From Nemertoderma westbladi (taxonomy: Eukaryota; Animalia; Xenacoelomorpha): 64,000 bases of DNA. Position numbers and translations under genes: made by a program. The notes beneath the pieces are model-generated. The model made no database searches. It was not told the DNA's origin and saw only the letters and a list, made by a program, of their open reading frames with translations. The stretch covers positions 1 through 64,000 of the forward strand of contig JAUCBJ010006713.1 of the NCBI GenBank assembly GCA_032718475.1. The letters run 5' to 3'. Below, one piece after another: positions 3,573 through 45,700 of the stretch; position 1 is the first letter of the stretch; the number at the start of each line of letters is the position of its first letter.

Positions 3573-3578
3573 CCATCA

Positions 3579-20900: not shown

Positions 20901-21327
20901 CCATATAAGGTAATTTTGCCGATGCTTAATTTAGCGGTACTAATAACATGATGCACAAAGGTTAATTTAGCGCAATTATAAAGAAATTAAAACCCGTGAT
21001 AGCCTCATCAAGGTTAATAACGGCAAGCCCATATCCAGGGTCCAACAAGGACTTGCTACCCTGGAACTATCTACTTATATCCTATTACAAAATTACATAG
21101 GTAGGGCTACATACTATACAAAATGGATGAATACAAATATATGGGCGTTTTATTTTCCTTATCTAAATGTCATCGCGCATTATCATGTCTTATCTAAAAT
21201 AATTATACTGCATAATGACTAATATTGTGTACAGTATAACGGCTAATAATGTGTACTGCATAATGACTAATATTGTGTATACAGTACAACGGCTAATAAT
21301 GTAGATACAGCGCCATATACCGTAACA

Positions 21328-21975: not shown

Positions 21976-22361
21976 AACCTTGCCCGTTTGGGCAAGCACG
22001 TATAATAACCTTGCCCGTTCTGGCAAGCACGTATAATAACACGCAAGCAGATATCTACCCTGCCAGTTTTAGCATATTAAACAATGAGTCGAGATATATA
22101 TTATTATGATTATTATTATGATTATAATACGAGAATTATAATATATGACAATGGCATACATGGATACATGAATACATTAAATTGCAATGGCTTGCATATT
22201 ATTTATAGACAATAAAATACAGTACGTGAAACCTATATACAGTATATACGTGAAAACTACAGAACTACGGTAGTATTATGTACTGTAGCTACTTAGTATT
22301 GAATTAACATACTACTGTAGGGGGGGGGGGGGGGGGGGGGGGGGACTGGACGCAATAAAAA

Positions 22362-24699: not shown

Positions 24700-25195
24700 A
24701 CTACTATGCTATGCCTACATACCCTTTACTTTCTTACTACGTGGCGCTATCGGTGCCCACAACTTCTAACTTCTATGGTACTATGTACCCTAATACTGCT
24801 ACTATGGTATACCTACATACCATACCCTTCACTCTCTTACTACATGGCGCTTTCGGTGCCCACAACCCCTCTGCTACTACTTCTATGGTATACCTACATA
24901 CCATACCCTCTACTCTCTTACTACGTGGCGCTTTTGGTGCCCACAACCCCTCTGCTACTACTTCTATGGTATATCTACATACCATACCCTTCACTATCTT
25001 ACTACGTGGCGCTTTTGGTGCCCACAACCCCTCTGCTACTACTTCTATGGTATACCTACATACCATACCCTCTACTCTCTTACTACGTGGCGCCTTCGGT
25101 GCCCACAACCCCTCTGCTACTACTTCTATGGTATACCTACATACCATACCCTCTACTCTCTTACTACGTGGCGCTTTCGGTGCCCACAACCTCTA
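24700..25195. repeat. 81-bp tandem repeat, ~6 copies
   Basis: Unit ...CTATGGTATACCTACATACCATACCC...GGTGCCCACAACCCCTCTGCTACTA... Confidence 0.9.
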
Positions 25196-25214
25196 CGGTA
25201 CTATGCACCCTACT

Positions 25215-27478
25215 TGTAAGGGTCCAGTAGTATACCGCTTACCAGATCCTAGTAACGATGTATCTTACTATGAGACTCTAGTAATGTATACGGGCTTGTA
25301 CAGTATCTGGCAACAAATCCCAGTCCAGGATATCCAAACAAACAGATATAGTACACAAACGACTACTGGCGAGGAACAGAGCCTTGTATCTATTCTATGT
25401 ACGTGAGCGGGTCTAATGCCTACGTACTAGACAGAAGGATACCTGTCCTCTAACCGGTGAGGCAGATGTACAGTTACAGTAACAGACCAAACTCACGGGA
25501 AAACAATCCCCGCGCAGCGAATCCTAACTATCACTGACAGTCCTAAATACAGTAACTTGCCGCGGTGTGATTTATATGGGTTATATACGAACTAGGTGGT
25601 TAACAGACCTAGTGTAACAATGCTGATCATCCCTGTCGAAATCAGCCTAAAGGTCGTGCCTAAATGTAACAATAACTGATCCCCCTGTACGAAATCAGTC
25701 TAAAAGGTCAGGCCTAAATGTAACAATACCGTTGTCCAGACAAACAACAGTTTAATAACGAAAGTGAAATACTCCTTATCTTGCCGCAACTAAATCAGAT
25801 CCTAATTTTACAAATACAGACAATTTCCACCTAAAGTAATGTATAGTACGCTATAGCTAGTAGAACTTTAAGGGCAATATGTTTTAGGGCGTGTGTGTGT
25901 GGGTGTGTTACAAATAAAACAATTTCGTGTAATTCCTTTTACTAGGTTTTAGTGATTTTCTGACTAAATGATACCGTGCGCTAGCTACTAAAATAAACTA
26001 GTCGCGTTTGTAGAACTTTATACTCACGAATGACGTCAAAGCTCTCTCCTTCCTATCCACAACCCAATGGGCAACCACAGTGTTAGTAACTACACCCGTG
26101 ATCGGCACTAATACCAGATTCTGGTTGTAAGATAAGAATAGGGGTTAATCGCTACCGTACGTTAGCTGATCTGGTATACTAATTTAATTATAGAATTTTG
26201 TTGCTGCGGTAGTTAGCAGCAATACCTATCAGTACGTGGCAAGGCGCGGTAGGATATTAGTAAACCTCCCTAGGCCAAGCAGTGTGCCGGTAGCAGAAAT
26301 GCTCCTTGCCTGATCAAATAGCTAACTCCAGACAGGGGGGGGGGGGGGGGGGTACTAATGTACGTTTTACAAAGCGAACCGGTACCAAACAGTCAGTGCT
26401 ATGAATCACTAAATTATGGAACGTATGCTGTCCGTACCTAATATGTACTCGCGTACTGACGAATGGCAATAGTTCGCACCTGTAGGAAGTACAGGTTAAC
26501 CCAGGGATTCGTAGGACTTGACAAAGGGGGGGGGGGGGGGGGGTGTCTGGATATAATTATTTGATCCTAAATTTGCGGCGTCCAGTGCGGTGTCACGCTT
26601 ACCCTGATCTATAGGTCTTACGGCGGGCAAGGGCGTCGAACAAAGTCTTACCTTCTCACAAAGCGGGCGCTGCATAGCAAGTGGAGTATTTCGAAGGGGC
26701 AAAGGGGTTGCGCGGTCGATCCAATGTGGGCGCTAGCGTGTTGTGGACATCCCTTCCCTGCGTTGCTTACGGCCTAACGATCTAGGCTGCCATCTCCCTG
26801 ATGTTCGGCTGTCCCGAAGTTGGACCAAAAGAAAACATGTCAGGAATTTGCAGTATATTTACAGTTTTACAAAAGGGTTTATCAAATAAAGTTTCAACAA
26901 GAAACCGAAATAAACTAATAACAATTTAGGGCGATAACGAATAGTGTGCGTGATAACCGAAGGCAAACCGGCCTTTTATACTAGAAATTGCACATGGAAA
27001 CTAAACAGAATTTTCCACAGCTTCACAATTGAGCAATGAAGTGCTTCGTGCCCTATGATTGGCCCAGCTCATCGTTCAACGCAGTCCGGCCCTTACACTA
27101 ATCTGGGACATGGAATCCTAACAGAATTTTCCACTGCCTCACATTTGAGCAATAAGATAATTTATGCCCTATGATTGGCCTGGCTCATCATTCGCTACGC
27201 TGTACGCTTCTCATTGGCCTACCAATTAGCACCACACGAAAATAAATGGCCCCAAAATACAAATTTCCCGTCTGGGATTCGAACTCGTAACCTATGTAAT
27301 GTAACCAACGCCTTAACCATCTGACCACTACGCCACGAGAGTACCTAAAGGTTTTATGTGTACAAATATGAATAGGCATATTACATTACTGTAACTCAAT
27401 CAAAATACGTCGGATTTTCGAAAGTTTTTACGTTAAAGTTAAACTACAAATGCTACCTTATAGTGAAATAATTCATCA
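25215..27478 (-). repeat. BEL-2 3' LTR
   Basis: tgtaagggtcc...aattcatca, direct repeat of 38997-41253. Confidence 0.95.
27265..27342 (-). ncRNA. tRNA-derived Pol III cassette inside 3' LTR
   Basis: Minus strand: A box TGGCGTAGTGG, B box GTTCGAATCC, TCTCGT/ACGGGA acceptor-like pairing, T4 run downstream; anticodon arm not canonical. Confidence 0.55.
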
Positions 27479-28229
27479 CCGCTCCATGAAAACAGTAAGT
27501 AAGGCTGTTTTCACCAATCGAAATATAAAATATTTACAAACTATTTCTAAATTTACTGGTAGGGCCTAAAATATAAAATATAATCACTATCTAATTATTG
27601 CATACTTAATATTGCAGATACGGCGTAAATACAATCGATCGTACATACAAATACAAATTTACGAATTAACTTTAGTGCCTAAAATACAAAAAAAAGGCTT
27701 TCGGTTATCAAGATAAACAAATTAAACAAATCAGAACAAATAAATCAAACAAATCAAACAAATAAATCAAACTCTTTCGATAAATCTTTATATATTGTAA
27801 ATATACATAATAAACCTTCACCAAATTAAATCAGTTCAAATATAATATAAACATAATGCGCTAATAACTTTCAATAGTGTCCTCCTGACGATCTGAAAAG
27901 TTCGTCCTGCTGGTCTGGATATCTTCTCCTGAGCACTAATTGCTAACGGTAGGCTCGCAAGCCTTCCTTTCCATATCTCGTTCTTCCAAACCCAACGTCC
28001 GATATAAATACCCAAATATAATATCCAAATATAAAATATCCAATATAAATATCCAATATAACATCCAAATATAATATCTGAATATAATATCTGAATATAA
28101 TATCCTTTCTTCTCGCTTTCCTATTCCTTGGCCGACCGGGCTCGTCCACGTCCTCTATTGCGATTGGGTGGTGGTCGAGGTCGAACTGGGCTCGGACTTC
28201 GGCGTCGAGTTGTCGGTGGTTCCAAAACG

Positions 28230-28481
28230 CTAGGAAAGGGGACGACGGGAGATGAAACGACCGCCTTCTTGGTAACGCAGACTTTGGTGGTTTGGGCAAC
28301 GCGCTAATATCGGTTCGGGGTTCTCGCAAACGTCGCTGGCGTCGCATAACGCATCGTAGGTGTACAACGCTTTGAACTCCGCGCGTAACTCCTCCGCTGT
28401 TTTGTTATAAGCGTCCAATCGCTGTCGCGTGACGTTTGGGTCCGCCTTGGATTTAGCAAGCTTGGCTGTACTCCTAGCCAT
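28230..28481 (-). CDS. Small orphan ORF (83 aa, MARSTAKLAK...) in env position of BEL-2
   Basis: First in-frame ATG downstream of a canonical 3' splice site (CTAAC + pyrimidine tract + AG at 28580). Confidence 0.35.
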   Translation of the reverse strand: MARSTAKLAKSKADPNVTRQRLDAYNKTAEELRAEFKALYTYDALCDASDVCENPEPILARCPNHQSLRYQEGGRFISRRPLS

Positions 28482-29272
28482 ACTCTCCACTCCAAACGGG
28501 TTAAAGTTTTGGTCCCATATCGGTTGAACGGCGCCTGGTGCTCCTATTCCTGCGTGGATCCCTGATAATAGTGTTTCTACTAGAGGAAGCACAAACAGAG
28601 GTTAGATGTGAGGTGACTTAGAGTTTGTCGGCTTTTGGCTCAACTCTGCTCTAAACCCTAACCCATTTTGCCTAATGACTTCGGGTTCGCGTGATTTCGC
28701 ACTGGCTCCTAATCCAAAAAATTGTGCCGATAAAAAACGAATTCCGGGTAAACTAGCCGTGAGTCTAAAATACTCACCTTTTAATTTCCCAAACTACGTT
28801 TCCCAAGAAAATAATGCAGTCGAGAATTAATTCGGTCTAAATAATAGTAGACACGACTACGTAGAACAAGACCGATTTTCTTTTTCCAAAAAAAATTTTT
28901 CGGTAGGCTCGCAAGCCTTCCATCCGCTCTTGTCCTCCCCAATTTTAATTTTATCTAGCTGTATTCTAGAATTTGCTTTCACTGGAGAATCGTTTTTCTT
29001 AAATTTAAATCCAACTAAATGGATTTGTCTAATAATTTTTGAAAATTGTCTCACTTGTGGGTTCCAAGTGGAATTCCATTCCTACTGTACACACAATCCC
29101 GCTCCTATGTGATACATAAGGGTACTACCCTCCATGTTCACGTATAAAGACAATGGAATTCCACCGCTGTCTCTATCTACAGTGAAGAGGATTACAAATG
29201 CACGTACAGTAATACAAATACAAATAACTAAAATACAGTAGGTCTATGTGGCGGCCAACAAAGGTCCCACAT

Positions 29273-32200
29273 CTATTTACTAATATTGGGTGGAGATTTG
29301 TAGTCTCCCGTCTCGTTTCTAGTCTCCTCAAGGAGTACGAGACGTTGTACAGGTCTGTCTACGGTACGTCCGTCGATAGTCCGTACAGTAACTGTCCTCA
29401 CTACACCAGATGTAGGGTGCGTGGTCAAAATGACTCCAGTCAGCCAAAACCGTCTTTTCAGATTAGCTTCAGCCAATAAAACATGGTCACCACGTCTTAA
29501 ACATCGGGTATTTAGATACCAAGAGGTTCTGGTCGAAATAGAGGGCAAATAATATTTCTGCCATATTTCCCAGAATTTATTTGCAAGTAATTGAGTGATT
29601 TTCCAAGCCTTGTTGCCGTATCCGTCACTATCAACGGGTACCGAAATGGGCAACAATGTCGTCGGCGCCTGCATAAGCAGGTGCGCTGGTGTCAAGGCAA
29701 ACTGTACGTCGTTATTGTCTGGGATCAAAGCGATCGGTCTGGTATTTAAGATTGCTTCGATTTCTATTAGTAACGTCGTCAGTTGGTCGTCTGTCAAGAT
29801 GTGTTGCGTCGGTACGACTTTAGCCATAGCTGTCTTTATTGAGCCAATCAGCCTTTCCCAAACGCCGCCTCTCCACGGACTGTCTGGAGTATTGAAAAAC
29901 CAAACAATACGGTGAGGACGTAGTTCCTCGGAAATCTGGTTTTGGTCCAATTTTCTCAAAGCTCTGGTTATCTCGTTCCGTGCACCCACAAAGTTTGTCC
30001 CTTGGTCGCAGTATATGGATTTGACCAATCCACGTCTAGCGATAAATCGCCGTAAGGCTAGGATAAAGGCATTGGTGGTCAAGTCTGTCACTCGCTCTAT
30101 ATGGACAGCTCTGCTGGCCATGCAGGTGAAGATCAATCCCCAACGTTTTACCTGTACCCTTCCGCGTTTCGCGATTATGGGTCCAAAACAGTCTATCCCT
30201 GTCTCAGTGAAAGGGGGTCTAAACGCCTGTAATCTAGCTAATGGTAGTTCACTCATTTCTTGGTGTCCTATCCTCGCGTGCACCTTCTTACAAATAATAC
30301 AGTTCCGTGTTACCGAACTCAGTGCCTTACTAGGTCTAATCAGTACAAACCTCGAGCGTAAGTGTGATAGACAGTGGTGTCTACCTACGTGTTTGAGTTG
30401 TACATGTGCGTCCAGTATCATAGCGCGCTGTAACTCATGGTGTTGCGGTATGATGATAGGATACCTAAAGTCAAGTGCAAAGTCGATGTTTTGGAGTCTG
30501 GACTTGTGACAAAGTAAGCCCCGGTAAATAATCGGACTCCAACTCAAAATCGGTGAAGACTTAATCTGTTTACCTTGTTTGATCGCTGTGAACTCTCGTG
30601 CGAAATATCGCAATTGATAATGTCTAATGATATCAACTTCACAGTGGTCAATTTCCTTTAAGGTAAGTCTTCTAGGAAAGTCGCGTTTGCCTCTGGCATA
30701 TTGTCTCAATCGTTTGAGCCATGCTAACTTGCGGCACGCGTCAGTCCATGATCTAGTTAGGTTCACTATCCTGTCAACGTAAGTGTTAGTGACGTCATCG
30801 GGTAAGGTGTAGTCGTAGTGTGGATACTTGTCTGGACTTGGTAGGCCCACGGGCCTTCCGGTAGGTTTGTCTGAGTCCCCAAGTACGTCAATCTCTACGG
30901 TCTTACCTTTGCCGTCCGCACCTAATATGTCGACTGGCAGTAATGGTTTCAACTCTACAGTGTCAGTGTGTTCCTGTGAGCTTGTAAGCTTCCTAACCTT
31001 AGTCACCACTTTACCTGTAGGTAAGTCAAGTACCTTCTTCGAGCGGAGTGTAATCCCTGTGGCCACACCTCTGTCGTCCAAAGAAGTCAAATTTGGTACG
31101 TCTCTAAAAGTCCGCTCCAATGGGTCTTCTAATGGAGTGTCTAGTAGACAGTCTGGTGAAGCGTCTGGTGAACAGTCTGGTGAGACGTCTGGTGAGACAT
31201 AGCGCGGAACATCCGGCGAAATGTCCTGTCGTTGGTCCCAAAGTCTGTCTAGCGTAACTTCTGTCAGAAAGTCTGGTTCAAAGTCTGGTGGACAGTCGGT
31301 TGAGATGTCTGGTGAACAGTCTGGTGAGACGTCCGGTAGACATTCTGTCGAGAGTTCCATCAAACAATCTGGCGAACAATCCGGAGAACAATCTGGTGTC
31401 TCTTCTGGTGAATAGTCTGGCGAGTAATCTGGTGAACAATCCGGCGAAACGTCTGGTGAAATCTCCCGCGGAACATCCGGCGAAGGATTCATACAAGCGT
31501 CTGGTCGAGTGTCTGGCGAGACGTCTGGCGTAATGTCAGGTCTGGCGTCCAGGTCATCAGATTTCGTCCGTCCTTTTTTCCTCTTGACCTTGGCGTTGGC
31601 TTTCGCTTTAGACTTGACAACCTTGTCGAGTTTTATCTCGGCACCCTCTGGTATGGTGTTGGTTGTCGCGTCGAATAACGGTGGCCATTCGTCTGATGGT
31701 CGCTGTAGGAAATCGGGTCCTCTAAACCAAAAGGATTTATTGTCCGGTTTACAAAAGTCAAGTGGTTGCATCCCCCGTGACGCGATGTCAGCTGGGTTCA
31801 GCTTCCCTGGACAGTGACGCCAATCTTGTTTGAGCGACCGGTCTAGTATTTCAGCCCGTCTGTTGGCTACGAAAGTCTTGAACTCGAATGTTTCGTTGTT
31901 TATGTACCAAAGTACCAACGTCGCATCCGTCCAATATGTGACCTTCAAGTTAGCCTCCAGCTCGCGTTGAACTAGACTGACAATATTGGTGGATATCGTC
32001 CCGGCTTGCAGCTCCCCACGAGGTACAGTCATATACTTCAATGGCATTGTTCTAGCCCTTGAAGTAACGAGAGATACATCGTAGCTGTCCGATGTCACTT
32101 GTCGTCTAAGGTATAAAGTAACCCCCAATCCATCCTTGCTAGCGTCACTAAAGCTGTGAAGCTCTAAATCGGCAGGAAAGGTGGTTTGCAAAGGAAAGTA

Positions 32201-35200
32201 TACCCTCGGTATGGTATAGTCTTGTAGGAACGTCAGTTGGGCTTCCCAGTCCCTCCATCGCTCAGCTAACTTTTCTGGGATGGGATCGTCCCATTCCAGT
32301 CCGGCTTGCCAAATGCTGCGGAGTATGATCCTAGCATGTAGGATCACTGGACTAATGAAACACAATGGGTCATACAATCGACTCATAGTCGATAAGCAAG
32401 TCCTCTTAGTGAGAGGTCTAGTCCGATCGTTGGACCTTACACGTACCCTAAAATTGTCGGTGTTAGGGTCCCAACTAAGTCCTAGTACTTTGGTCGTCGG
32501 CAGTGGTTCTAGGTCTAAGTCTAAATCACCTCCGCTACGATCCATCGGGTCAAATGAGTTCACCAGTTCGGGTTCGTTGGAAGCGAACTTCGTCAGGTGA
32601 AATCCGCCCTCAGCGAGACAATCCTGGAGTTGGTGTGCTACGGTTGTAGCGCGCTCCAAGGTGTCACAACTCTTGAGGCCGTCATCCACGTAGAAATCTC
32701 GTTCCACGGTCCGAACTACTTCTGGGTCAAATTGGTCTCGTCTGTCTAATGCTGTCTGCTTCAAGGCGTACATGGTGCAGTTGGGGCTGTCCCTGGCTCC
32801 GAATACTCTTACCTGTATTTGGTAAGTTTCTGGCGGAAGTTGTAAGTTTCCGTCCGGATACCAAAGAAACCTCAAACTGTCCCTGTCCCGCTCCAAAGCC
32901 TTAACCTGGTGAAACATGGCCTCTACGTCACAGGTGAAAGCCACTTTGCGTTGTCTAAAACGCATTAGGACTCCCATGAGGTAATTATTCATATTCGGCC
33001 CGTCCATCAGTTCGCTATTCATAGACATCCCTTGGTAAAGCGCAGCGCAGTCGTTGACTACACGCACCTTGCCAGGTTTGTCCGGGTGTCGAACAAAATG
33101 ATGTGGCAGGTAATATGTCTGGTCTGTAGTTACCTCAGGATTTAACATCCTAATGGCGTATCCCTTTTGGAGATACGTCTGAAGTTGTGCATTGTATTGC
33201 ATATGGGCCGTCTCGTCTCGCAACAATCGCTGCCTTATTGATTTGAGTCGCCTCAAAGCAAGCGGGTAATTGTTAACGAGCTTAGGTTGTCCATTGCGCC
33301 ACAACATACCAACCTCATAGTGGCCATTCGCGGTCTGGCGAATGGTATCTCTCATAATATTTAATGACCGTTTTTCCTGTTCTGACATAGCGGTCTCGTA
33401 ACTACCGGGTTCTGCTGAGTCCTGTTCCAACCATTGTATGGTCCGTTCAGTCAGCAGTCGGTCAAGCGCTGCTTGCACTGCGCCATGGTCCTCGTCCACG
33501 TCTTCGTCCGCTGCGGTGGCTAGTGTCAATGTGTCTGGTAGGCTCGCAAGCCTTCCGGTGTCACTAGTCGGCGTCGAATTGTCGTGCGGCGGTTTGACAA
33601 CCTTTTGATCTGTCGGTAGGCTCGCAAGCCTTCCAAGATCAACGACCGGTGTCGAAGCCTGGTGGGTGGGGTCAATGACCTTCGGATTTTTCGGTAGGCT
33701 CGCAAGCCTTCCAAAATCCTCGTTCATCGAGTCATCCACAGCAACAACCCTCAGGTCTTCAGTAGTCAATACAACCTGGTCTACTGCAAGTAGTTGTAAG
33801 TCAGAGGTCCGTATGGTCGTGTCCAGATCGGTTACGTCAGTATCGGTGGCGTCTGCGTTAGTGACGCAAGTCTGTCGTAGTGCCGTCCGTACAATTGGAC
33901 CACGGGAGTGTGAAGGAGAATTATCTATCGTGTTAGTCAATAAACTACACGTACTCAAAACATCGTCCTCCTGGTCACTTACCTCTAGTGAACGTATTGG
34001 TGCTCTAGTATACCAACCTATGGGAGTTCTACATGCGTAGGGGTTGCCCGCTGTAATAACAGATGGGCGTGTCTCCCATACCTGATGTAAGTTAAACTGG
34101 TCTGTCCCAATTAACATCGCAATGGAACGATAATTGACAGGACATTCCGGTATTCCAAGGTGTCGAAAATACTTACGATCTTCCGGAGATTGCTCTGGCA
34201 CAGGGCCGAGCAAGTTACTAAAGTCCTTCGTAGCTGCAAAGGTCAAATTTCTTACCGGAAGTAATGAGCGCTCCTCCTTGCTGTGTTCCGCTTTGGAAAG
34301 AAGAGTGTCTAAAGTTAGTTTTACTCTCGTCACAGGAATCGCTCTCTTACCATGCATGCTGCTTACAGTATACTGAGCAGTCTTACCTTGACTCAAGTCC
34401 GTAACTACGTCGGCTACTTGTTCGTCGACGTAACTATGCGATGACGCAGAGTCTAAGATGGCGTATATACGCTTGCTCCCTCGGGTTCCGGTAATCTTTA
34501 TAGGAATCACGCTAAACCCTTTCAATTGGTTCTGTGTGAGGAGCGTTATCGATGGCTGTTCCTCACCTGCATGCACGTAGAAAGTGTCGTCTTTCTCCTC
34601 GTCCTCGTCCGATGATCCTGACTGATCCATACAATCGGTATAAAAGGTACGGATCTCGCGCGGCGCACACTCCTTATAAAGCGCGTCGCATCTAGCCGCT
34701 TTATCGGGATGCTCTCGTCGAAAGCGTCTGGTCGGAGTATGACTGGTTGTGTGAAGCAACGCGTCATGGTTACGTCCATACAAAGAACATGTATCGTCGC
34801 TCGGGCAATCCTTCCGGACGTGTCCTGGCTTCATACATCTCCAACAGGAATCTAGAGATCGGATTTGGAGTCTCCTCTCCTCGATCCCTAACTCTTTAAA
34901 GGCGCGACATCCACGTAGTTTATGTCCGCTTTGGTTTCTGCCGTTCCGCTCGCAGTATGAGCATCCCACAAAGTCCGCCGGCAACTGTTGTCGTGGCTGC
35001 GTGGTGCCGATAGGCGTCAGAACTTTAGAAGTCTCAGTAGGGGTGGCGTAAGTAACGGCTTTCGCGTTCGTCGGAAACGGTTTAGTCCGATTCGGCGCAG
35101 AAACAGTTATCCCTTCCGCCGCGATATGGTGATCGGTATAGTTCGATCGAGTCTCGATCACGGCCTCCCGTGAAATAAGTTGATAGACATCGGTGAGTTT

Positions 35201-38041
35201 TAATAACCCTCCGGCCTCTTCGCGCTGGTACTCGATGCGTCGCCATTCTCGTCGTAGTCGATGATGAAGTCGACCGATTATTCGAATGAGAACCGTCGGT
35301 GCGTTAGCGTACTCGAGTTGTCCAATGGACCGTAAAGTCCCTATAGCGTTCTTTATTTCGTCCGCGAGTCGTAAAAGGTCAATCGGTCTCGAAATGTTGC
35401 CTCCTCTGCAGAGGTCTTCAATGATGGATTTAGCCATGGCGACGTTACCGCCGTAAATCGAATACAAACGGTCGTACGCCAACTCGAAGGCATCGGGAAC
35501 ACCAATAAAGGTTTCCGCTAATCGTTTCGGCTCACCAGACAGGACTTGGAGCAAGTAATTAAACTTCTCCGTCGAGGTGAAAGCACACTTAGCGATCTGG
35601 GACTCTACGTAGTCTACCAGTGTGCGCCAGTGTTTCGCGTTGCCAGAGAACTTCGGCGGTTGCTGTGCCGGTAATCCGTGTCTAGCCGCGAATTTCGCAA
35701 TCTCGCTAACCAAATCCAACTGTCCGCGTCCCTGTTCGGCGGCGTCGTCCAGTCGTTCCCTTCCACGCGTTGTTCGTCGGTAGGAATTATTAACGGGATC
35801 TTCTTCTCGATGTGTTGGAGTCCGTCTAGTCTCCTGTTCTCTCCTCGGTGGTCGATGTTGTCTAGGTTGTTCCAACTCCACGCTGGTTCGTGATCGATCC
35901 GACGGTTGCGCTTCGAGTCGTTCTTCGAGTTGAGCTATTCTGTCCGTCATCTCGGTGAACTGTTTAGCGCTGATCGTTTCTGCTGGTTTCAACGTGGGTT
36001 TCTGTTGGGGTGTCTCTCGAGGTGGATTGTCGATGTATGGATTCGTCGACTTCTCCTCTCGTTTGTAATCCGCTGCCGCTCCAGTACGGAATATTTCCCG
36101 TTCCGTCGACTCCGAGTCGCTAGATGAGTCGCTGTCGTCCGGATAAGGTGGTTGGCGGGTTCGCGTCCGGCGTATTATTCTTGGTCGAGTTCGTTGTGGT
36201 CTGGGATCTACGGCTCTCCGTTGTTCGGTAGGCTCGCAAGCCTTCCACGAAGTCGTAGGTCTCGTTAAACATTGGGTGAGAGGTCTAGTAAAAACATCGG
36301 AGTTAAGCTCTACTGTAGGTTTATAAATGACTGGGTTCGCGCAGCACGTCACAGGTTTAACTTGTAATGGTTTACTCACCTGTTTAATGGTCATAAACGC
36401 AGGTTCCTCTCTTCCTACAAGTAGACTACGACTTACTGTAGGTGGACTAGTTATGTTACCTGCTAAAATTGGCGATGAAGTCGCCCTAGGTTGCGGTATT
36501 TCCGTCACAACAAACCTGTTGCCTTGCGTCGAACGCACAGGCGTTATTTCCTTAGGTTTCGTAACAAAGACCGGTTTTATCGGAGTCGTGGGTTTGAGCA
36601 TAGGAATAACTTGGGGAAAACGTTTACAGTAATCCTCGACGAACTCCTCTCCTCGATCTATCGCTCCCACGCTTCCTTCCTCGATCCGCTTCTGTATTCC
36701 GCGATATCGAGCTTCCATACGATCCAGGGCAGACAAGTCGTGTCCAGTTCGCGATCTCATAGATCTATCTCTCGCGTCGAGTTCGAGGTCCGCTTGCGCG
36801 TTCGCTGTCTCTCGCGATCTACGATTCAATTCGAACTGTAGTTGCATCTCCCTTTCGCGTCGATCTGCATCCTGTTGTTGTGCCGCTAACTCCGCTTCCT
36901 GTATAGCTAATCGAGCGTTTATTTGCCGCGCCTCCAACTTGGCCCGAGCGTCGGATGCTGCCTTTTTCCGTGCTAACTCGTCAGCTGCCGCCTGTCGTGC
37001 TAACTCGTCGGCTGCCGCTTCTCGCGCTAAGTCCTCCTCCAGTCTCCGCATCTCTGATGCTTCGAACTCAGCCTGCGCTTGAAGTTTCGCAAGTTTCGCT
37101 ACGTCTTCTCTACGCTGTCTTTCTCCTTCCATCGCAATCTGCGCCAATTGTCGTTGAGTTTCTTCCTCGGCGACTTGTTGTCGGCGTGCAACCTCCTGTT
37201 GTTGTTGAGTAATTCCAGACGCTGTTCTACTAACGTCGCCAACGTTGCCAACGTCGCTCCGTACGCTAACGAACGATCTATCCAGTGGTGGATGTTGGTA
37301 GGCTCGCGAGCCTTCCGTAGTGAGAACTTCCGTCGTCCCTCGCGGTTCGACTTCCGGTTCGTCGATCGGTACGCCGCATCTACGAAGAAAATTGGTCAGC
37401 GTTTCCAACCTTCCGTCCAGGCAGTAGAGTTCTTCTTCCTCTTCGGGTTGTAACAACGCGTCCGAAACTGACTCACCTAGCAGTTGGTCGAACTGCTCCT
37501 GTTGAGCCAATCTTATCACCGACTTAAACTGGATAAGGCTTTCTCTCGCACTTACCAATTTATCTACTATCTTTACCTGAGTAAAGTTGTCACCACGCAA
37601 CTCTGCAAGTTCGTACAAACCTTTTAGTTTATCTACGGAGGCATGTACCCTACTTTCTATTCTTACCTGTAAGGTGTAGAACTCGTATCTCGACATCGGG
37701 GCGGTTAACTCGCGTAAAACGCGAAAACCTTCTCCGAGGTTCCGAGTAATCTGGGCCATGTGTCCTCCTATACTTCTAATAACGTTCTGCTGGCTTCCAG
37801 TCGAACTTACCATGTCCGGTTCCCGTGATCTAGTCTGCGGGACGGTAAGGAAATCTTCGATTCTGCCGTCGCCACGCGTTGCGGCTTCCGGTATTTCCGT
37901 TCGGGGTACCGGCGACGCAAGCGGTGTGACATCGGTGGAATCTCGGGTTCTCCTTCTCGGTTCGTCTACTGTCGATCTGTCCGGGTCGCACGAGTCATAG
38001 TCGGTAGGTGGGTATCTCGTCGAATGGGGTGTGTCACTCAT
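29273..38041 (-). CDS. BEL/Pao Gag-PR-RT-RH-IN polyprotein (2922 aa)
   Basis: Gag LPAQQPPKFSG; knuckles CSYC..H..C, CWRCMKPGHVRKDC, CSLYGRNHDALLH; PR LDSAS; RT YLPHH, YVDD; RH FSDAS, WTDA, NPADIASRG; IN HHCC, GIDCFGP, CDQGTNF, GVWERLI. Confidence 0.97.
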   Translation of the reverse strand: MSDTPHSTRYPPTDYDSCDPDRSTVDEPRRRTRDSTDVTPLASPVPRTEIPEAATRGDGRIEDFLTVPQTRSREPDMVSSTGSQQNVIRSIGGHMAQITRNLGEGFRVLRELTAPMSRYEFYTLQVRIESRVHASVDKLKGLYELAELRGDNFTQVKIVDKLVSARESLIQFKSVIRLAQQEQFDQLLGESVSDALLQPEEEEELYCLDGRLETLTNFLRRCGVPIDEPEVEPRGTTEVLTTEGSRAYQHPPLDRSFVSVRSDVGNVGDVSRTASGITQQQQEVARRQQVAEEETQRQLAQIAMEGERQRREDVAKLAKLQAQAEFEASEMRRLEEDLAREAAADELARQAAADELARKKAASDARAKLEARQINARLAIQEAELAAQQQDADRREREMQLQFELNRRSRETANAQADLELDARDRSMRSRTGHDLSALDRMEARYRGIQKRIEEGSVGAIDRGEEFVEDYCKRFPQVIPMLKPTTPIKPVFVTKPKEITPVRSTQGNRFVVTEIPQPRATSSPILAGNITSPPTVSRSLLVGREEPAFMTIKQVSKPLQVKPVTCCANPVIYKPTVELNSDVFTRPLTQCLTRPTTSWKACEPTEQRRAVDPRPQRTRPRIIRRTRTRQPPYPDDSDSSSDSESTEREIFRTGAAADYKREEKSTNPYIDNPPRETPQQKPTLKPAETISAKQFTEMTDRIAQLEERLEAQPSDRSRTSVELEQPRQHRPPRREQETRRTPTHREEDPVNNSYRRTTRGRERLDDAAEQGRGQLDLVSEIAKFAARHGLPAQQPPKFSGNAKHWRTLVDYVESQIAKCAFTSTEKFNYLLQVLSGEPKRLAETFIGVPDAFELAYDRLYSIYGGNVAMAKSIIEDLCRGGNISRPIDLLRLADEIKNAIGTLRSIGQLEYANAPTVLIRIIGRLHHRLRREWRRIEYQREEAGGLLKLTDVYQLISREAVIETRSNYTDHHIAAEGITVSAPNRTKPFPTNAKAVTYATPTETSKVLTPIGTTQPRQQLPADFVGCSYCERNGRNQSGHKLRGCRAFKELGIEERRLQIRSLDSCWRCMKPGHVRKDCPSDDTCSLYGRNHDALLHTTSHTPTRRFRREHPDKAARCDALYKECAPREIRTFYTDCMDQSGSSDEDEEKDDTFYVHAGEEQPSITLLTQNQLKGFSVIPIKITGTRGSKRIYAILDSASSHSYVDEQVADVVTDLSQGKTAQYTVSSMHGKRAIPVTRVKLTLDTLLSKAEHSKEERSLLPVRNLTFAATKDFSNLLGPVPEQSPEDRKYFRHLGIPECPVNYRSIAMLIGTDQFNLHQVWETRPSVITAGNPYACRTPIGWYTRAPIRSLEVSDQEDDVLSTCSLLTNTIDNSPSHSRGPIVRTALRQTCVTNADATDTDVTDLDTTIRTSDLQLLAVDQVVLTTEDLRVVAVDDSMNEDFGRLASLPKNPKVIDPTHQASTPVVDLGRLASLPTDQKVVKPPHDNSTPTSDTGRLASLPDTLTLATAADEDVDEDHGAVQAALDRLLTERTIQWLEQDSAEPGSYETAMSEQEKRSLNIMRDTIRQTANGHYEVGMLWRNGQPKLVNNYPLALRRLKSIRQRLLRDETAHMQYNAQLQTYLQKGYAIRMLNPEVTTDQTYYLPHHFVRHPDKPGKVRVVNDCAALYQGMSMNSELMDGPNMNNYLMGVLMRFRQRKVAFTCDVEAMFHQVKALERDRDSLRFLWYPDGNLQLPPETYQIQVRVFGARDSPNCTMYALKQTALDRRDQFDPEVVRTVERDFYVDDGLKSCDTLERATTVAHQLQDCLAEGGFHLTKFASNEPELVNSFDPMDRSGGDLDLDLEPLPTTKVLGLSWDPNTDNFRVRVRSNDRTRPLTKRTCLSTMSRLYDPLCFISPVILHARIILRSIWQAGLEWDDPIPEKLAERWRDWEAQLTFLQDYTIPRVYFPLQTTFPADLELHSFSDASKDGLGVTLYLRRQVTSDSYDVSLVTSRARTMPLKYMTVPRGELQAGTISTNIVSLVQRELEANLKVTYWTDATLVLWYINNETFEFKTFVANRRAEILDRSLKQDWRHCPGKLNPADIASRGMQPLDFCKPDNKSFWFRGPDFLQRPSDEWPPLFDATTNTIPEGAEIKLDKVVKSKAKANAKVKRKKGRTKSDDLDARPDITPDVSPDTRPDACMNPSPDVPREISPDVSPDCSPDYSPDYSPEETPDCSPDCSPDCLMELSTECLPDVSPDCSPDISTDCPPDFEPDFLTEVTLDRLWDQRQDISPDVPRYVSPDVSPDCSPDASPDCLLDTPLEDPLERTFRDVPNLTSLDDRGVATGITLRSKKVLDLPTGKVVTKVRKLTSSQEHTDTVELKPLLPVDILGADGKGKTVEIDVLGDSDKPTGRPVGLPSPDKYPHYDYTLPDDVTNTYVDRIVNLTRSWTDACRKLAWLKRLRQYARGKRDFPRRLTLKEIDHCEVDIIRHYQLRYFAREFTAIKQGKQIKSSPILSWSPIIYRGLLCHKSRLQNIDFALDFRYPIIIPQHHELQRAMILDAHVQLKHVGRHHCLSHLRSRFVLIRPSKALSSVTRNCIICKKVHARIGHQEMSELPLARLQAFRPPFTETGIDCFGPIIAKRGRVQVKRWGLIFTCMASRAVHIERVTDLTTNAFILALRRFIARRGLVKSIYCDQGTNFVGARNEITRALRKLDQNQISEELRPHRIVWFFNTPDSPWRGGVWERLIGSIKTAMAKVVPTQHILTDDQLTTLLIEIEAILNTRPIALIPDNNDVQFALTPAHLLMQAPTTLLPISVPVDSDGYGNKAWKITQLLANKFWEIWQKYYLPSISTRTSWYLNTRCLRRGDHVLLAEANLKRRFWLTGVILTTHPTSGVVRTVTVRTIDGRTVDRPVQRLVLLEETRNETGDYKSPPNISK

Positions 38042-40748
38042 GTCTTATTATATACGTCAAGTACGGGTAATAAAATGTCAAGTGTCTGAATGTTGAGGTG
38101 TCAAACTTACCTTGGTATATATAGCTATATACCCTAACCGGTACAAATAAATCAACAAGTCAGAATGTCGAAATGTCAAAATGTCGAAATGTACAAATGT
38201 CAAACTTACCTTGATATATATATATATCATATATATACCCTAACCGGTACAAATAAACTAACAAAGTATATAATAAAATAAGTAGTAATCTAGCCTACCG
38301 GCTAAATTTGTACGAATAAGTGAGATAACGGTATACATTAACAAAATGTAGATCAACAAGTATAAACAATAGGCCAAACAGCAACGTCTAACGGGAAAAT
38401 ATGTACCAACAACACTACTAATAGACAGTGAAACCCACAAATTTTGAGTACTACTGTGCTTTCTTAAGTTTGAACGACGCGAGTCGTAAAACTTACGTTC
38501 CTTTGATCTTCCAGTCGTACAAATTCCCAAATACAAACCGGACGTGGGTCTTTCCGTTTTTCGGCGGCGCGGACGAATTTATTGTCTCCCAAACTTTGCG
38601 AAAAGCGGTCTAATCCTCGAAGCGGTCCAGAAATGAGTCCTTGAGTCCTGAAAAGGTCGAAGGTGAGAGTTTTACTTCTACGCTTACGAAAAATCTTCCT
38701 AGGTACCGTTACAAATTGGTCTTTAAACCCTATGTACCTTTTCAAGTACCGAAAAGTAACACCGCACACACACGGCGTAAAACAAAGTGCTACAAACTAA
38801 CTGTTAGCTAGTCAAATATTAAATACGAAAGTACTAGCTACCCTAAAAGCCTACTGAAGCAGGGGACGTTCTAAATTACTAAATTTACTAACCTTAAATT
38901 TTAAATATCTCCTACTTTCAATAGCTAGCAATTCTAAACTATACTATACGCTACGGCGGAAATACTATATACTAATTTATATAAAATACTTCCTACTGTA
39001 AGGGTCCAGTAGTATACCGCTTACCAGATCCTAGTAACGATGTATCTTACTATGAGACTCTAGTAATGTATACGGGCTTGTACAGTATCTGACAACAAAT
39101 CCCAGTCCAGGATATCCAAACAAACAGATATAGTACACAAACGACTACTGGCGAGGAACAGAGCCTTGTATCTATTCTATGTACGTGAGCGGGTCTAATG
39201 CCTACGTACTAGACAGAAGGATACCTGTCCTCTAACCGGTGAGGCAGATGTACAGTTACAGTAACAGACCAAACTCACGGGAAAACAATCCCCGCGCAGC
39301 GAATCCTAACTATCACTGACAGTCCTAAATACAGTAACTTGCCGCGGTGTGATTTATATGGGTTATATACGAACTAGGTGGTTAACAGACCTAGTGTAAC
39401 AATGCTGATCATCCCTGTCGAAATCAGCCTAAAGGTCGTGCCTAAATGTAACAATAACTGATCCCCCTGTACGAAATCAGTCTAAAAGGTCAGGCCTAAA
39501 TGTAACAATACCGTTGTCCAGACAAACAACAGTTTAATAACGAAAGTGAAATACTCCTTATCTTGCCGCAACTAAATCAGATCCTAATTTTACAAATACA
39601 GACAATTTCCACCTAAAGTAATGTATAGTACGCTATAGCTAGTAGAACTTTAAGGGCAATATGTTTTAGGGCGTGTGTGTGTGGGTGTGTTACAAATAAA
39701 ACAATTTTGTGTAATTCCTTTTACTAGGTTTTAGTGATTTTCTGACTAAATGATACCGTGCGCTAGCTACTAAAATAAACTAGTCGCGTTTGTAGAACTT
39801 TATACTCACGAATGACGTCAAAGCTCTCTCCTTCCTATCCACAACCCAATGGGCAACCACAGTGTTAGTAACTACACCCGTGATCGGCACTAATACCAGA
39901 TTCTGGTTGTAAGATAAGAATAGGGGTTAATCGCTACCGTACGTTAGCTGATCTGGTATACTAATTTAATTCTAGAACTTTGTTGCTGCGGTAGTTAGCA
40001 GCAATACCTATCAGTACGTGGCAAGGCGCGGTAGGATATTAGTAAACCTCCCTAGGCCAAGCAGTGTGCCGGTAGCAGAAATGCTCCTTGCCTGATCAAA
40101 TAGCTAACTCCAGACAGGGGGGGGGGGGGGGGGTACTAATGTACGTTCTACAAAGCGAACCGGTACCAAACAGTCAGTGCTATGAATCACTAAATTATGG
40201 AACGTATGCTGTCCGTACCTAATATGTACTCGCGTACTGACGAATGGCAATAGTTCGCACCTGTAGGAAGTACAGGTTAACCCAGGGATTCGTAGGACTT
40301 GACAAAGGGGGGGGGGGGTGTCTGGATATAATTATTTGATCCTAAATTTGCGGCGTCCAGTGCGGTGTCACGCTTACCCTGATCTATAGGTCTTACGGCG
40401 GGCAAGGGCGTCGAACAAAGTCGTACCTTCTCACAAAGCGGGCGCTGCATAGCAAGTGGAGTATTTCGAAGGGGCAAAGGGGGTGCGCGGTCGATCCAAT
40501 GTGGGCGCTAGCGTGTTCTGGACATCCCTTCCCTGCGTTGCTTACGGCCTAACGATCTAGGCTGCCATCTCCCTGATGTTCGGCTGTCCCGAAGTTGGAC
40601 CAAAAGAAAACATGTCAGGAATTTGCAGTATATTTACAGTTTTACAAAAGGGTTTATCAAATAAAGTTTCAACAAGAAACCGAAATAAACTAATAACAAT
40701 TTAGGGCGATAACGAATAGTGTGCGTGATAACCGAAGGCAAACCGGCC

Positions 40749-41000
40749 TTTTATACTAGAAATTGCACATGGAAACTAAACAGAATTTTCCACAGCTTCA
40801 CAATTGAGCAATGAAGTGCTTCGTGCCCTATGATTGGCCCAGCTCATCGTTCAACGCAGTCCGGCCCTTACACTAATCTGGGACATGGAATCCTAACAGA
40901 ATTTTCCACTGCCTCACATTTGAGCAATAAGATAATTTATGCCCTATGATTGGCCTGGCTCATCATTCGCTACGCTGTACGCTTCTCATTGGCCTACCAA
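40749..41000 (-). promoter_or_regulatory. LTR Pol II promoter: TATAAAA (40755-40749) preceded by duplicated CCAAT modules
   Basis: Two ~70-bp modules (AACAGAATTTTCCAC...CCTATGATTGGCC) ~116 bp apart plus a further CCAAT; the same arrangement is in the 3' LTR. Confidence 0.6.
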
Positions 41001-41040
41001 TTAGCACCACACGAAAATAAATGGCCCCAAAATACAAATT

Positions 41041-41117
41041 TCCCGACTGGGATTCGAACTCGTAACCTATGTAATGTAACCAACGCCTTAACCATCTGAC
41101 CACTACGCCACGAGAGT
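41041..41117 (-). ncRNA. tRNA-derived Pol III cassette inside 5' LTR
   Basis: Same A box/B box as 27265-27342. Confidence 0.55.
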
Positions 41118-42733
41118 ACCTAAAGGTTTTATGTGTACAAATATGAATAGGCATATTACATTACTGTAACTCAATCAAAATACGTCGGATTTACGAAAGT
41201 TTTTACGTTAAAGTTAAACTACAAATGCTACCTTATAGTGAAATAATTCATCACTACTACTTAGTGCTATGTACTATCTACTACTATTACTTTCTACTAT
41301 CTTACTACTTATTTATTATTTGCTTGTTATTTATTTATATTTTTTATTTTATGTGTGGGAAGGGCGTCTCGCCCTCATTCCCACCCCCCCCAGTCCAACA
41401 TATTACATATTGGATGACTCAATAACCTAAGGGTGATTCTTCCAGCAGGCAATTATCCCACTGCCCCACTATAGGTCCTCCTAATCTTCGCCCCACTCTT
41501 CTTCTCAATTCCAACTCTTTTGGAATTGACCTTCCCTTCTCCTTCACCCTTAAGTCGGGTCTTTCAGTCATGTTACTAATCTCCTCGTTGTCGTCCCCTG
41601 GCGGAAAAATGCCACCCTTCATCTTGTCGTCATTTGGCGGTAGAATGCCGCCCCTCATGTCATCCTTGCTGGTACATGCCACCTCTGCTGGCCTCCCTTA
41701 ATATGTGCGCGCTGGCATTAAAGCCCCCGATGACCCCCGGTCATCCTTCGGTACACGTAATGGGCAATGGCTTATCATTTAATGCCCCTTCGCACTCTGC
41801 CACCCCCTTATGCGTGTACAACATGCCCTCTCCCACTTTCCTGCCTCCTTTGTCACGTTTCATCATGGGCTTCTCTGCCCCTGGTCTAATCTTCCCACAT
41901 CCTCTCCCTTTCCACCTTGTCTTCTTACTCGACCTCCTCCTCATCGGTATGCCTCTCAACTGGACCGGTGCTTGTTCCGGACATCTCTCTGGACACCTCG
42001 CCGTCCACTCTTCGCCATCCCCATACCGATACTCCCCATTCTCCTCTGCCCTCGGCATCGTCTCCCCAAACACTACCCTTGGTGCCGTTCCTGGCTGCTC
42101 GCCCAGCCTGATCGTGCCTCCCGCGAAATCCATCGCCGGCTCCTCGTGCACCCAGGCCCGCTTGCCGGGTTTATCCCAGAATGCGCTCGCCCCGCTGGCC
42201 GTCACCACTCTCCCGCCCACCCAGTCCGTATCTGAGTGGCCGATCCTCTCAATGGGTGGCATCTCCCCGAACTCATCGTCATCCTCCTCCCTCGCTAGGA
42301 GTGGATCCTGACCCGGTAGCCCGGTAGATCCACTGTGCCCCTCTCCGCCTCGGTTTCCACCCGTAACCTTCCACCCCTCCTGCTCCCTTGGTGTCTTCCT
42401 TGCAAAGTCGCCCTCAGAGCCACCTGGTATGGGCATCATTTGCAATCCCGATGTCGACTGTTTCGGTGATCCCTCCGTCCATCCCAGTTCCTCCCCCAGA
42501 AACTCGCCCGAGCTCCCTGATCCCCACCTTAGCTCATCCAAGTCCTGGGCTTCGAACCCATACTCCTTGTTTTCTTCCTCGGCCTGCTTCTCGTATGGGT
42601 CCTCCCCATCGCCTGTTTCTGGTTTCTCCTCTGCTCCCTCGTCCTCCACTTCTCTCATTGTACCTGCGAACATGCACCCTGAGGATTCCGACACGTTGAA
42701 CGGAATTCTAGACTTGATTGGGCCGCTGAGTGT

Positions 42734-45700
42734 CTATCCAAATGGCGTGGAAATCGCCATTGGGCCTCTCTCTCCATCTTCGTCGAATAGGCATGAAAAC
42801 CTCCTGTGGGCTGTCGGGCAGTCCATTCCGACTATGAGAGATACTTTCGGGACGTCCAGTTTGGGCACGGAGAAATTGATATTGTCCAGGTAGTGGTATT
42901 GTTCGACCTTGCTCTTCGTGGGTCGCCTGGCATTAATATTAATCGATTCTATTATTTGAATGGGATCGATGGTCGCCCCATAATCCCTGTCTGACGCTAC
43001 CGCTGATATTTTACAACGCCCCGTTCTCATCCTAAAGACTTCGTCTTTATTCGAGATAGTGGTTACCGCCATCTTACTTGGCCTCTTTTGTAACCCTATC
43101 TTTTCGGCCACCCAATCCTCCATTAGCGTGAACGCTGACTCCACTATCGATCAACATTAATGTTGTAACTGATTAGCCCGTCCTCTCCTGTTATTCTCAC
43201 TGGTACTAATTCGAGTAGTACCATTCTCTTTCTCTTTGCTCCCATCGTGCTCATAGCCATGGTTTGGCCTCCAGTCTCATCGTATCCTATCGGTGTTTCT
43301 CTACACTCTCCGAATCTGTGTCCTTCCACCACGCAGCGATAACATCCATTTGTATCCGCGTAGGCTACCCGATCTTGTTTAGGCAACGCTTGCCAATGCT
43401 TACAACTCATGGTCTTATGGGTTCCATCTCTATGCAATTGACATTCGTATCCTGGATTGTAGCATTCCCTGTATAGCCCTTCACGTATAGCGCGTAGATT
43501 CATATCTACCGGTTTAGTGTTTTGGTTATTTGGACTTGGCCTACTGGGTATGTTGGTATTATATTTGTTTGTGTTGTTATTTTGTTTCTGTCCCTGCCAC
43601 GGTGTGGCCCTACTCCCAACTAGGGTTCAACAGAAGGCACTTTATGGGGCCGAACCGAACCGAACCGAAGCAGGGCCAACTTCGGGCCGAACCGAACCGA
43701 ATCCGAACCGAAGTTCAGAAAGTTAGCAAGTTATGGTCATAAATTCGTATTTACGTCACTATACTGGCTGACTGGCAGTGGCAGACTGGTACCTATTTGG
43801 TCTGCTGACTTAGCGAGAAAGCTATGATTAATTAAAAAAATAAATACTACAAAATAAAATGGCAATATTTACATTACTATACATTACTAACCTAAACTAC
43901 TGTATACTTACTGTATGCATGCACTTACTGTATGCACCACATTTTCACCCGTAGTAAGCCGTACAGTAGTGACATCAAATTTAGAAAACCTCACTAAAAG
44001 TACAGGTACAGTCGGACAGTGGTGCAGACAATGGTGCAGACACTGGTGCAGACACTGGTGCAGACAGTGGTGCAGACAGTGGTGCAGACCGTGGTGCAGA
44101 CAGTGGTGCAGACAGTAGTGCAGACACTGGTGCAGACACCTGGTGAAAATACTGAAATACTAGAGTACCACAAAACACAATACCACCAGGCACTATTATA
44201 TTATATTTTATCATAGACTTTATTATCTACAAATATGCGAGTAACTACTGAAAGGTTCTACATGAAGTAGGGAGGACGTATGTAGTACAAGTCGGGGTGC
44301 GTGCTGGTGAATGTGCCCTGATTACAAATAATTAAAAGAGGTGTGTACGAAAGTAATTAATCGGTATTCCCGTTTTCATATAAACAATAATGTCTATAAA
44401 TTGTAAGCAGCAATGTCTCCAAGGAATGAGTTTTAAGCGACAGTGTGTGATTGTTTTTACATGACCTACTTTATACAGAGTATGTTTAATTTGTTTACCT
44501 TTACTGGAGCCACTGCTTATTACTGTATAATAAAACGAGCTCATTAAGTTATTGTCTCGTGCTGGGCAGCTGGGGATATACATTCACTAACTCCAGTAAG
44601 GTCTCAGGAATTCTTAGCCTGCGAGTATTCTTAGCCTGCGAGTATTCTTGGGTATTCTTAGCCCGCAAAACAATAACGTTTATTGTTTTGGTTCCCCCAA
44701 TACTCCTCTGAAACTGTGAAACCTGCTCCTTTACTAACCTGCTCGCCCCTTTACTGTCTGTACCAGTCTGCCAGTGTCTGCACCACTGTCTGCAGCAGTC
44801 AGCAGTGTCTGCACCAGGTGTCTGCACCGCTGTCTGCTCCACTGTCTGCACCAGTGTCTGCACCACTGTCTGCACCTGGTGTCTGCACCACTGTCTGCAC
44901 CACTGTCTGCACCAGTGTCTGCACCATACTGTCTGCACCAGTGTCTGCACCACTGTCTGCACCACTGTCTGCACCAGTGTGTGCACCACTGTCTGCACCA
45001 TAGGTGTCTGCATCACTGTCTGCACCATTGTCTGCACCACTGTCTGCTCTGCACCAGTGTCTGCTTAACGTTTACACTCCAAAATTAATTAGTACAACGA
45101 TGGACAGATTGATTAGTCTTACTGTCTTCTGGCAGTCTGGTCTTAGCTCAATCAGTCAATGTAATACTTGGAATATTTAGCAAAGTTTGCTCCGGGCTTC
45201 TGCAGTATCAATTGCAGAAGCCGAACCGAACCGAAATTGCCAAACTTCGGCCCGAACCGAACCGAAGCCGAAGCTTCTGTTGAGCCCTACTCCCAACTAA
45301 CTGTGGACTAGCAGTCCCCTGTGTGGCCGTATGTGGTAGCGACTGTCTCACTCTCGGGAATGCACCTGCCGGATTATGTTCGGGTTTAGGCCTGTTGTAT
45401 TCAGCTTTCGGCGCCTTCCCCAAACTATCCTCGCTGTAGACTGGGTCTGTAATCAACTCCGCCTCATAGTTAAGGAACTTTGACATCTCTTCTAGGCCTG
45501 GCTCCGCACCCTTCTTCTCCCGGGTGGAGAAGGCGATCTTTCTCCATTTGTTTCTTAGCCAGATGGGTAGTGCCTGCGCTATTGTGGTGTATGTTATGTG
45601 TATGTTATTCGATGCGTTGAGTTTGTAGGGCGCATCCAGGGTCTTCAGCACAATCAGCGCCTTTTCGACTTTATTCGCAAAAGTCTTGATGCTGACAGGG

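Follow-up and report, generated by a model that had tools for sequence, protein, structure and literature searches.

The repeated hairpin characterized here lies within a BEL/Pao LTR retrotransposon of 16,039 nt, which is read from the minus strand of the window (the whole 64-kb stretch of DNA that was analysed). All copies of the hairpin fall inside this element, the main parts of which are as follows.

38997..41253, minus strand: 5′ LTR of 2,257 nt, bounded by TG...CA, with CCAAT boxes at 40994, 40955 and 40839 and a TATA box at 40755
29273..38041, minus strand: gag-pol polyprotein, a single open frame of 2,922 amino acids from the first ATG
25215..27478, minus strand: 3′ LTR of 2,264 nt, bounded by TG...CA

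The polyprotein contains a DUF1759 Gag core, a CCHC knuckle, a protease motif, a reverse transcriptase (RT) with YVDD, Peptidase_A17 (the RNase H region), HHCC and core integrase domains, and DUF5641. This domain set, the TG...CA LTRs and a short target-site duplication (5 bp, at 25210–25214 and 41254–41258), together with homologues that have the same Pfam set, assign the element to BEL/Pao, LTR retrotransposons described as confined to animals (PMC3601003). The LTRs are 99.2% identical (10 mismatches and 7 gap bases) and the polyprotein is open, indicating that the insertion is recent. Domain content and order, LTR termini and the 5-bp duplication are those of BEL/Pao (Semotivirus), whereas the 2.26-kb LTRs, a 3′ ORF, the lack of a TGG-starting primer site and the repeated hairpin set this element apart, as does a polyprotein about 700–1,300 amino acids longer than those of the best 120 of 397 homologues (1,593–2,219 amino acids; 37–46% identical in the RT region). 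No shorter homologue was found for the N-terminal 780 amino acids of the polyprotein, and an exact-sequence look-up in the protein collection found none of three sequences. In the open polyprotein, an insertion of about 140 codons between RNase H and integrase (31116–31552) consists of a 12-nt (S/T-P-D-x) repeat, and homologues do not align there. The element RNA is predicted to be approximately 14–15 kb long.

No TGG-type primer site follows the 5′ LTR, as judged from the sequence of the element. The 10 bases after the CA of the 5′ LTR (38987–38996, minus strand) are the exact complement of an LTR-internal 10-mer at 40263–40272 (also 26482–26491), and such a complement occurs in 9 of 3,000 shuffled LTRs. 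The arrangement recalls self-priming as in Tf1; here it would need an internal cut, given that the site lies about 450 nt after the TATA-predicted start. Near its start, the LTR also contains A and B boxes of the tRNA type (41110 and 41059, respectively) within 41050–41110 (minus strand), and at the matching place in the 3′ LTR, possibly a Pol III promoter or a tRNA-derived piece. No tRNA genes were found by ARAGORN and no tRNA by Rfam (25000–41500). Only a short polypurine tract precedes the 3′ LTR.

Several other repeats share the window. Two broken BEL/Pao elements (11474–17908 and 41741–46266) lie on the same strand as the studied element, which may have inserted into or beside the second of them. 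Arrays of one 19-nt unit, inverted and about 10 kb apart (11258–11504 and 21301–22026), flank the BEL/Pao element at 11.4–18 kb and could be the ends of a foldback-type element. Non-LTR retrotransposon ORFs occur on the plus strand at 3573–6614 (endonuclease and RT) and 8129–8860 (RT fragment), and two AT-rich 10-nt arrays are found at 49177–50771 in inverted arrangement (49198–49307 with 49634–49743).

The hairpin motif is 20 nt long and is present in eight copies, given here in the 5′ to 3′ order of the element.

37297..37316, minus strand: copy 1, loop CGCG; frame 2; N-terminal extension, amino acid 243 of the stop-to-stop frame; aligned by 0 of 120 homologues
36227..36246, minus strand: copy 2, loop UGCG; frame 1; N-terminal extension, amino acid 600; aligned by 0 of 120 homologues
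33693..33712, minus strand: copy 3, loop UGCG; frame 0; protease–RT linker; predicted lower stem 33684–33719 with a 2-nt 3′ bulge
33615..33634, minus strand: copy 4, loop UGCG; frame 0; predicted lower stem 33605–33642 with a 2-nt 3′ bulge
33537..33556, minus strand: copy 5, loop UGCG; frame 0; third unit of a 78-nt triplication
30840..30859, minus strand: copy 6, loop CGUG; closing pair C–G in place of U–A; frame 0; RNase H–integrase linker
28902..28921, minus strand: copy 7, loop UGCG; 3′ of pol
27948..27967, minus strand: copy 8, loop UGCG; 3′ of the small ORF, 470 nt ahead of the 3′ LTR

Six copies are identical (27948, 28902, 33537, 33615, 33693 and 36227), the seventh (37297) has one mismatch and the eighth (30840) has four in a two-strand scan. 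Scanning both strands of the 64-kb window at up to 6 mismatches recovered these eight copies and their reverse readings and nothing else, and each of 100 shuffles of the window gave 0 matches. A covariance model built on the eight copies scored them at 32.7–37.4 bits each, with the next distinct place in the window at 10.5 bits. All eight are co-oriented, neither LTR nor the 5′ leader contains one, and the 48 kb of the window outside the element contains none; the scan and the model thus confirm a preliminary description that had reported eight co-oriented copies, spread over three frames and the 3′ region, with none in the LTRs or elsewhere in the window. The copies at 33537, 33615 and 33693, spaced 78 nt apart, form one triplication (33537–33712), so that the number of independent sites is six rather than eight. 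The first copy lies 1,681 nt past the 5′ LTR, inside gag, and the copies span 9.4 kb with site-to-site gaps of about 1–2.7 kb.

Six copies lie inside the ORF, four in frame 0 (30840, 33537, 33615 and 33693), one in frame 1 (36227) and one in frame 2 (37297), and two (28902 and 27948) lie 3′ of the polyprotein stop. The preliminary description had placed all ORF copies in inter-domain linkers, which is correct for the four frame-0 copies; the other two, at 36227 and 37297, precede the Gag core and belong to the N-terminal extension. Residues encoded at the ORF copies are aligned by 0–8 of 120 homologues (best 120 of 397), compared with approximately 105–120 of 120 in the core domains. Given the use of three reading frames and the two non-coding sites, protein selection is excluded as the explanation of the motif, as had been claimed. 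A resemblance to a p53 half-site, judged by eye, was dropped because its core is lost in the 30840 variant, and Rfam covariance models gave 0 matches at E values up to 1 over 25000–41500.

All eight copies are predicted to fold alike in 50-nt context, as ((.(((((....))))).)), that is, two G–C pairs, an A–A mismatch, five pairs and a tetraloop. When the sense strand is folded with 200 nt of context, pair probability exceeds 0.5 in six of the eight and is about 0 for 27948 and 33537. Sixteen of the 20 columns are invariant, and both adenines of the mismatch and both loop guanines, the latter exposed in the predicted hairpin, are kept in 8 of 8 copies. The preliminary description had read the 30840 copy as a compensatory change; the swap of U–A for C–G is present, although this lone change in the 20-mer is not significant (reached by 162 of 500 shuffles). 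The loop variants UGCG, CGCG and CGUG all fit YGYG, which displays two guanines and would allow self-pairing with G–U pairs; with three variants and three transitions behind it, the shared pattern is suggestive only. By computation, passing from separate hairpins to a duplex gives two main-type copies 15.5 kcal/mol of added stability on the sense strand and 7.7 kcal/mol on the antisense strand, and mixed pairs with the 30840 variant gain 7–10 kcal/mol; the advantage of the duplex is to a degree general to such hairpins, antisense strand included.

Constraint on the motif was assessed within the triplication and across the family. Host sequencing runs contain many diverged family copies (16,282 contigs from run X1, 1,656 of them less than 90% alike), and variant shares were taken from runs X1, X2 and X3 (X1 and X2 are one sample; X4, guessed to be RNA, was left out). 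The variant table covers 33490–33760 at a threshold of 2% and holds 28 rows at 27 places, with four outer-flank variants left out of the test. Within the triplication, 26 of 58 spacer bases differ (45% divergence), whereas the motifs differ at 0 of 20, twice. Family variants of at least 2% occupy 1 of 60 motif positions versus 22 of 116 spacer positions (Fisher p 0.0005), a comparison in which contigs of other copies raise motif depth up to about twofold and so dilute variants there; with the spacer threshold raised to 4% or 5%, the depletion has p 0.03 or 0.06. Synonymous-capable sites vary at 0 of 24 in the motif versus 9 of 40 in the spacer (p 0.01), and CpG positions at 1 of 9 versus 10 of 23, with loop CpG sites at 0 of 6 at 2%. 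The sole motif variant turns the first G–C pair into G–U on the sense strand, at a CpG. Contigs with loose ends fit at a motif and then run into flanking sequence that does not resemble the window, the outcome to be expected were the motif retained in diverged subfamilies.

Two units of the triplication also provide evidence on the form in which the motif acts. Units 33615 and 33693 share one predicted lower-stem register with a 2-nt bulge, forming 8 of 8 and 7 of 8 pairs, respectively. The six differences between their stems sit in three pair positions, two of them compensatory and one broken (chance 0.007, for a register picked after the folds had been seen), and four family variants in the 33615 stem make up two complete compensatory pairs (0.015, with variants unphased). 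In the 33693 stem, two family variants keep a G–U pair and one (33715) breaks a pair; each of the three triplication units varies at the predicted bulge base +3. A lower stem as a general feature of all eight copies was rejected (flank-shuffle p 0.52). As lower-stem pairing is kept while the sequence changes, a folded single strand is favoured over a double-stranded DNA site. Three of four one-sided stem changes keep a sense-strand G–U pair, two of them at CpG sites, and the sense strand is weakly indicated, rather than the antisense, as the one that folds. The invariant A–A mismatch and loop guanines would suit recognition, not palindrome repair. Spacer divergence beside identical motifs, the synonymous-capable sites and the compensatory lower stem in two units support the multi-site nucleic-acid-level element that had been proposed, and selection for the motif as one or another kind of nucleic-acid element is, in our view, very probable.

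The region between pol and the 3′ LTR, and the 5′ leader, contain further features that bear on the fate of the RNA.

38105..38212, minus strand: two perfect predicted splice donors, with intron first bases 38209 and 38110, in the 5′ leader just ahead of the gag ATG
28230..28481, minus strand: 83-amino-acid ORF of no known family, with a predicted splice acceptor (28580) and a 5-codon upstream ORF (28518) ahead of it
28035..28112, minus strand: AT-rich 13-nt repeat, candidate place of a ninth hairpin copy in other family members

The 83-amino-acid ORF has no Pfam match at E values up to 0.01. Four matches were found among 1.84 billion representatives, each resting on 7–17 short stretches, and a pairwise check of the best one exposed a repeat artefact; in the Atlas the best value was 0.76. 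The accessory protein of the preliminary description therefore has no credible homologue, although a strong predicted splice acceptor does lie ahead of it. The splice-site scan, a prediction from sequence by consensus pattern, gave a single strict sense-strand acceptor in the 16-kb element, at 28580, and two acceptors and three donors on the opposite strand by the same rules. Splicing from 38209 or 38110 to 28580 is predicted to remove seven of the eight hairpin copies as an intron. Between pol and the small ORF (28632–29100), several one-base indels differ among family copies and a donor-like site occurs at 28777; the 3′ gene structure may include another exon or be in decay. The small ORF region has the lowest summed depth in runs X1 and X3, depth here not being copy number.

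Copy number may differ among family members. Five joints set a motif beside 28034 and 28107–28121 (28034>28900, 27971>28113, 28921>28107, 28929>28121 and 27969>28111, among 15 of 167 joints), and a further one puts a motif of the CGCG type close to 28307 (among the same 15 of 167 joints; 12 of 79 between-letter rows). The joint sides are only 21–25 nt, a length that repeats can produce. A ninth copy thus appears to be present at 28035–28112 in other family members; if the joints are right, copies come and go, a turnover that redundant, additive sites would be expected to show.

Among the sequences examined, the motif appears to be specific to this family. The two other BEL/Pao elements in the window, one of them 56% identical over RT–RNase H, have no copy. 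For a wider comparison, the best 80 of 515 confirmed BEL/Pao metagenome loci were used (53 clusters; median 7.1 kb, many without 3′ regions and LTRs). None of the 80 has a motif match at up to 3 mismatches, the closest being 4–5 mismatches in three loci on the antisense strand, and the best covariance-model score is 14.9 bits; conservation in relatives outside the family, which had been put forward as a check, was thus not found in these loci. Copies of the hairpin form five clusters in this element, whereas in 83 control sequences no dispersed hairpin of any sequence has more than two clusters. None of 120 homologue proteins (best of 397) carries any of the three peptide readings of the motif. 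A degenerate form of the motif had four single matches in 2.9 million viral contigs, about the chance level by a rough estimate, and these contigs yielded no relative of the element's RT (62 pattern matches, none confirmed). Close relatives outside the family that could give covariation were found neither in the viral contigs nor in the protein collection.

Our preferred reading, which is plausible and tentatively held, is that of a repeated RNA hairpin bound by the element's own Gag for packaging or compaction, possibly with a role as a dimer contact. The hairpin would act on the genomic RNA as a repeated site for the Gag zinc knuckles, and Gag-bound hairpins would mark the unspliced RNA for packaging and make it more compact. 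Two copies could, by prediction, pair through their YGYG loops and extend to a near-complete duplex, giving dimer or cross-link contacts like those of Ty1 SL1. Seven of the eight copies are predicted to be intronic and so missing from a spliced 3′ mRNA, and many copies may have been gained because the RNA is far longer than that of relatives. A more elaborate form, in which the single 5′ packaging and dimer signal has been replaced by a barcode of eight to nine hairpins, read by Gag and pairing copy to copy, so that the RNA becomes cross-linked to itself and its partner as a packaging-ready condensate told apart from spliced RNA and sibling families, is doubtful as a whole.

Packaging signals of other retroelements offer points for and against a Gag-read hairpin. 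The element encodes a CCHC knuckle. In Rous sarcoma virus (RSV), the UGCG loop of SL-C is reported to be bound by a zinc finger of the nucleocapsid (NC), and the same source reports that this loop had no effect on the specificity of whole Gag in vitro (PMC5035970). SL-C and the present motif are both short UGCG-loop hairpins in a retroelement with CCHC knuckles; RSV has one copy within a 5′-leader junction, whereas here eight near-identical copies occupy coding linkers and the 3′ region, and we take the 4-nt loop match as a lead, not as homology. HIV-1 NC is described as binding loop guanines of tetraloop hairpins (PMC7599994). The motif shares predicted loop guanines with the psi-type NC-binding hairpins of retroviruses and differs from them in lying outside the 5′ leader. 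Ty1 SL1 reportedly passes from hairpin to extended duplex with Gag (PMC6844567). Like Ty1 SL1 (PAL1–PAL2) and retroviral dimer initiation hairpins, the motif is self-complementary, with a computed duplex more stable than two hairpins; Ty1 has one site in the 5′ UTR, in contrast to eight interchangeable ones over 9.4 kb with a fixed A–A mismatch here, and dimer initiation hairpins number one or two near the 5′ end, unlike the arrangement seen here. Being absent from the leader and repeated almost exactly, the motif falls outside the psi-type and dimer classes as defined.

The lack of a copy in the 5′ leader, the site of the retroviral and Ty1 signals, also counts against Gag as the reader, as do the at least one copy that would remain on the predicted spliced RNA and the absence of the motif from the 56%-identical sibling and the 80 other BEL/Pao loci. 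A review of Ty1 and Ty3 describes most of their internal sequence as dispensable in trans, a further point against, and considers that scattered sites probably contribute, while leaving these undefined (PMC4974528). Dispersed packaging sites are reported for enteroviruses (enterovirus-E; PMC7793301). Such signals of single-stranded RNA viruses resemble the present motif in having many genome-wide sites that overlap coding sequence; they are described as degenerate and as coming from selection experiments, unlike the 80–100% identical 20-mers of this retrotransposon.

The reader of the hairpins could instead be a host RNA-binding protein or the product of the small ORF, which, much like Rev/RRE or multi-copy zipcodes, would govern how unspliced RNA leaves the nucleus, persists, is translated or becomes localised in the germ line. 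Multi-copy localisation elements inside coding regions are known, for example in yeast ASH1. The structural and constraint evidence fits this explanation equally, and the sole strict sense acceptor ahead of the small ORF, with two perfect donors ahead of gag, would make seven of eight copies intronic. We nevertheless regard it as possible though unlikely: the small ORF has no homologue and belongs to no RNA-binding family, stands behind an upstream ORF and lies in the region of lowest summed depth in X1 and X3, the acceptor rule yields two matches on the opposite strand as well, and a site for a host protein might be expected in other elements of the host, yet two siblings lack the motif.

Another explanation is that the motif serves as double-stranded DNA, a palindrome for a dimeric factor (an enhancer, insulator or anti-silencing protein) placed along the integrated element. 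Its 8-bp inverted repeat with a 4-bp spacer has a DNA folding energy that is equal on both strands, and the absence of variants from the six loop CpG sites could also be explained by protection from methylation. High-copy palindromic motifs specific to one retrotransposon group are described in Sireviruses, as here, but those are reported to have a CGG–CCG core and to cluster in the LTR and before env (PMC2829016), an arrangement not found in this element, in which the motif avoids the LTRs and occupies all three frames. That the LTRs and the vicinity of the promoter are free of copies, that half-site asymmetry is kept in 8 of 8 copies in a single orientation, and that the lower stem changes sequence yet keeps its pairing, which a sequence-reading DNA factor does not need, render a DNA site rather improbable.

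Little credence can be given to a functionless motif that was spread and kept uniform by template switching of the reverse transcriptase or by gene conversion at a small palindrome. The confinement of ORF copies to stretches absent from homologues (0–8 of 120 align; best 120 of 397), the origin of three copies by tandem duplication, a copy number that seems to differ among family members, the capacity of palindrome repair to yield symmetric changes and the restriction to one family all agree with it. Conversion would, however, need identical 20-nt end points at each of six unrelated sites, repair would erase the A–A mismatch that is kept in 8 of 8, paired lower-stem changes lie outside the shared sequence, and direct repeats invite deletion, a cost. 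Finally, a role in reverse transcription, as RNA or single-stranded cDNA, is very improbable; the motif would then be a site of pausing, strand transfer or internal plus-strand priming that aids copying of a very long genome. In favour are a 5′ arm with six purines in a row, the short 3′ polypurine tract, the spacing of copies at 1–2.7 kb and a fold that is equally possible as DNA; against it, the motif is unlike the 3′ polypurine tract and no deep joint cleanly links two distant copies (among 15 of 167 joints).

Cis-acting hairpins of retroelements are known; their exact repetition across several reading frames was not found described in the literature searched, which included few subscription journals. 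In that literature, RNA selection and handling in BEL/Pao, a whole animal retrotransposon superfamily, is close to unstudied. The exact 20-mer and its natural variants mark the sites and name the changes that are tolerated. Whatever the reader proves to be, short oligonucleotides and a single protein domain offer a test of distributed RNA recognition in a retroelement. An element of this kind would bend the linkers of its protein in three reading frames so as to accommodate an RNA signal.
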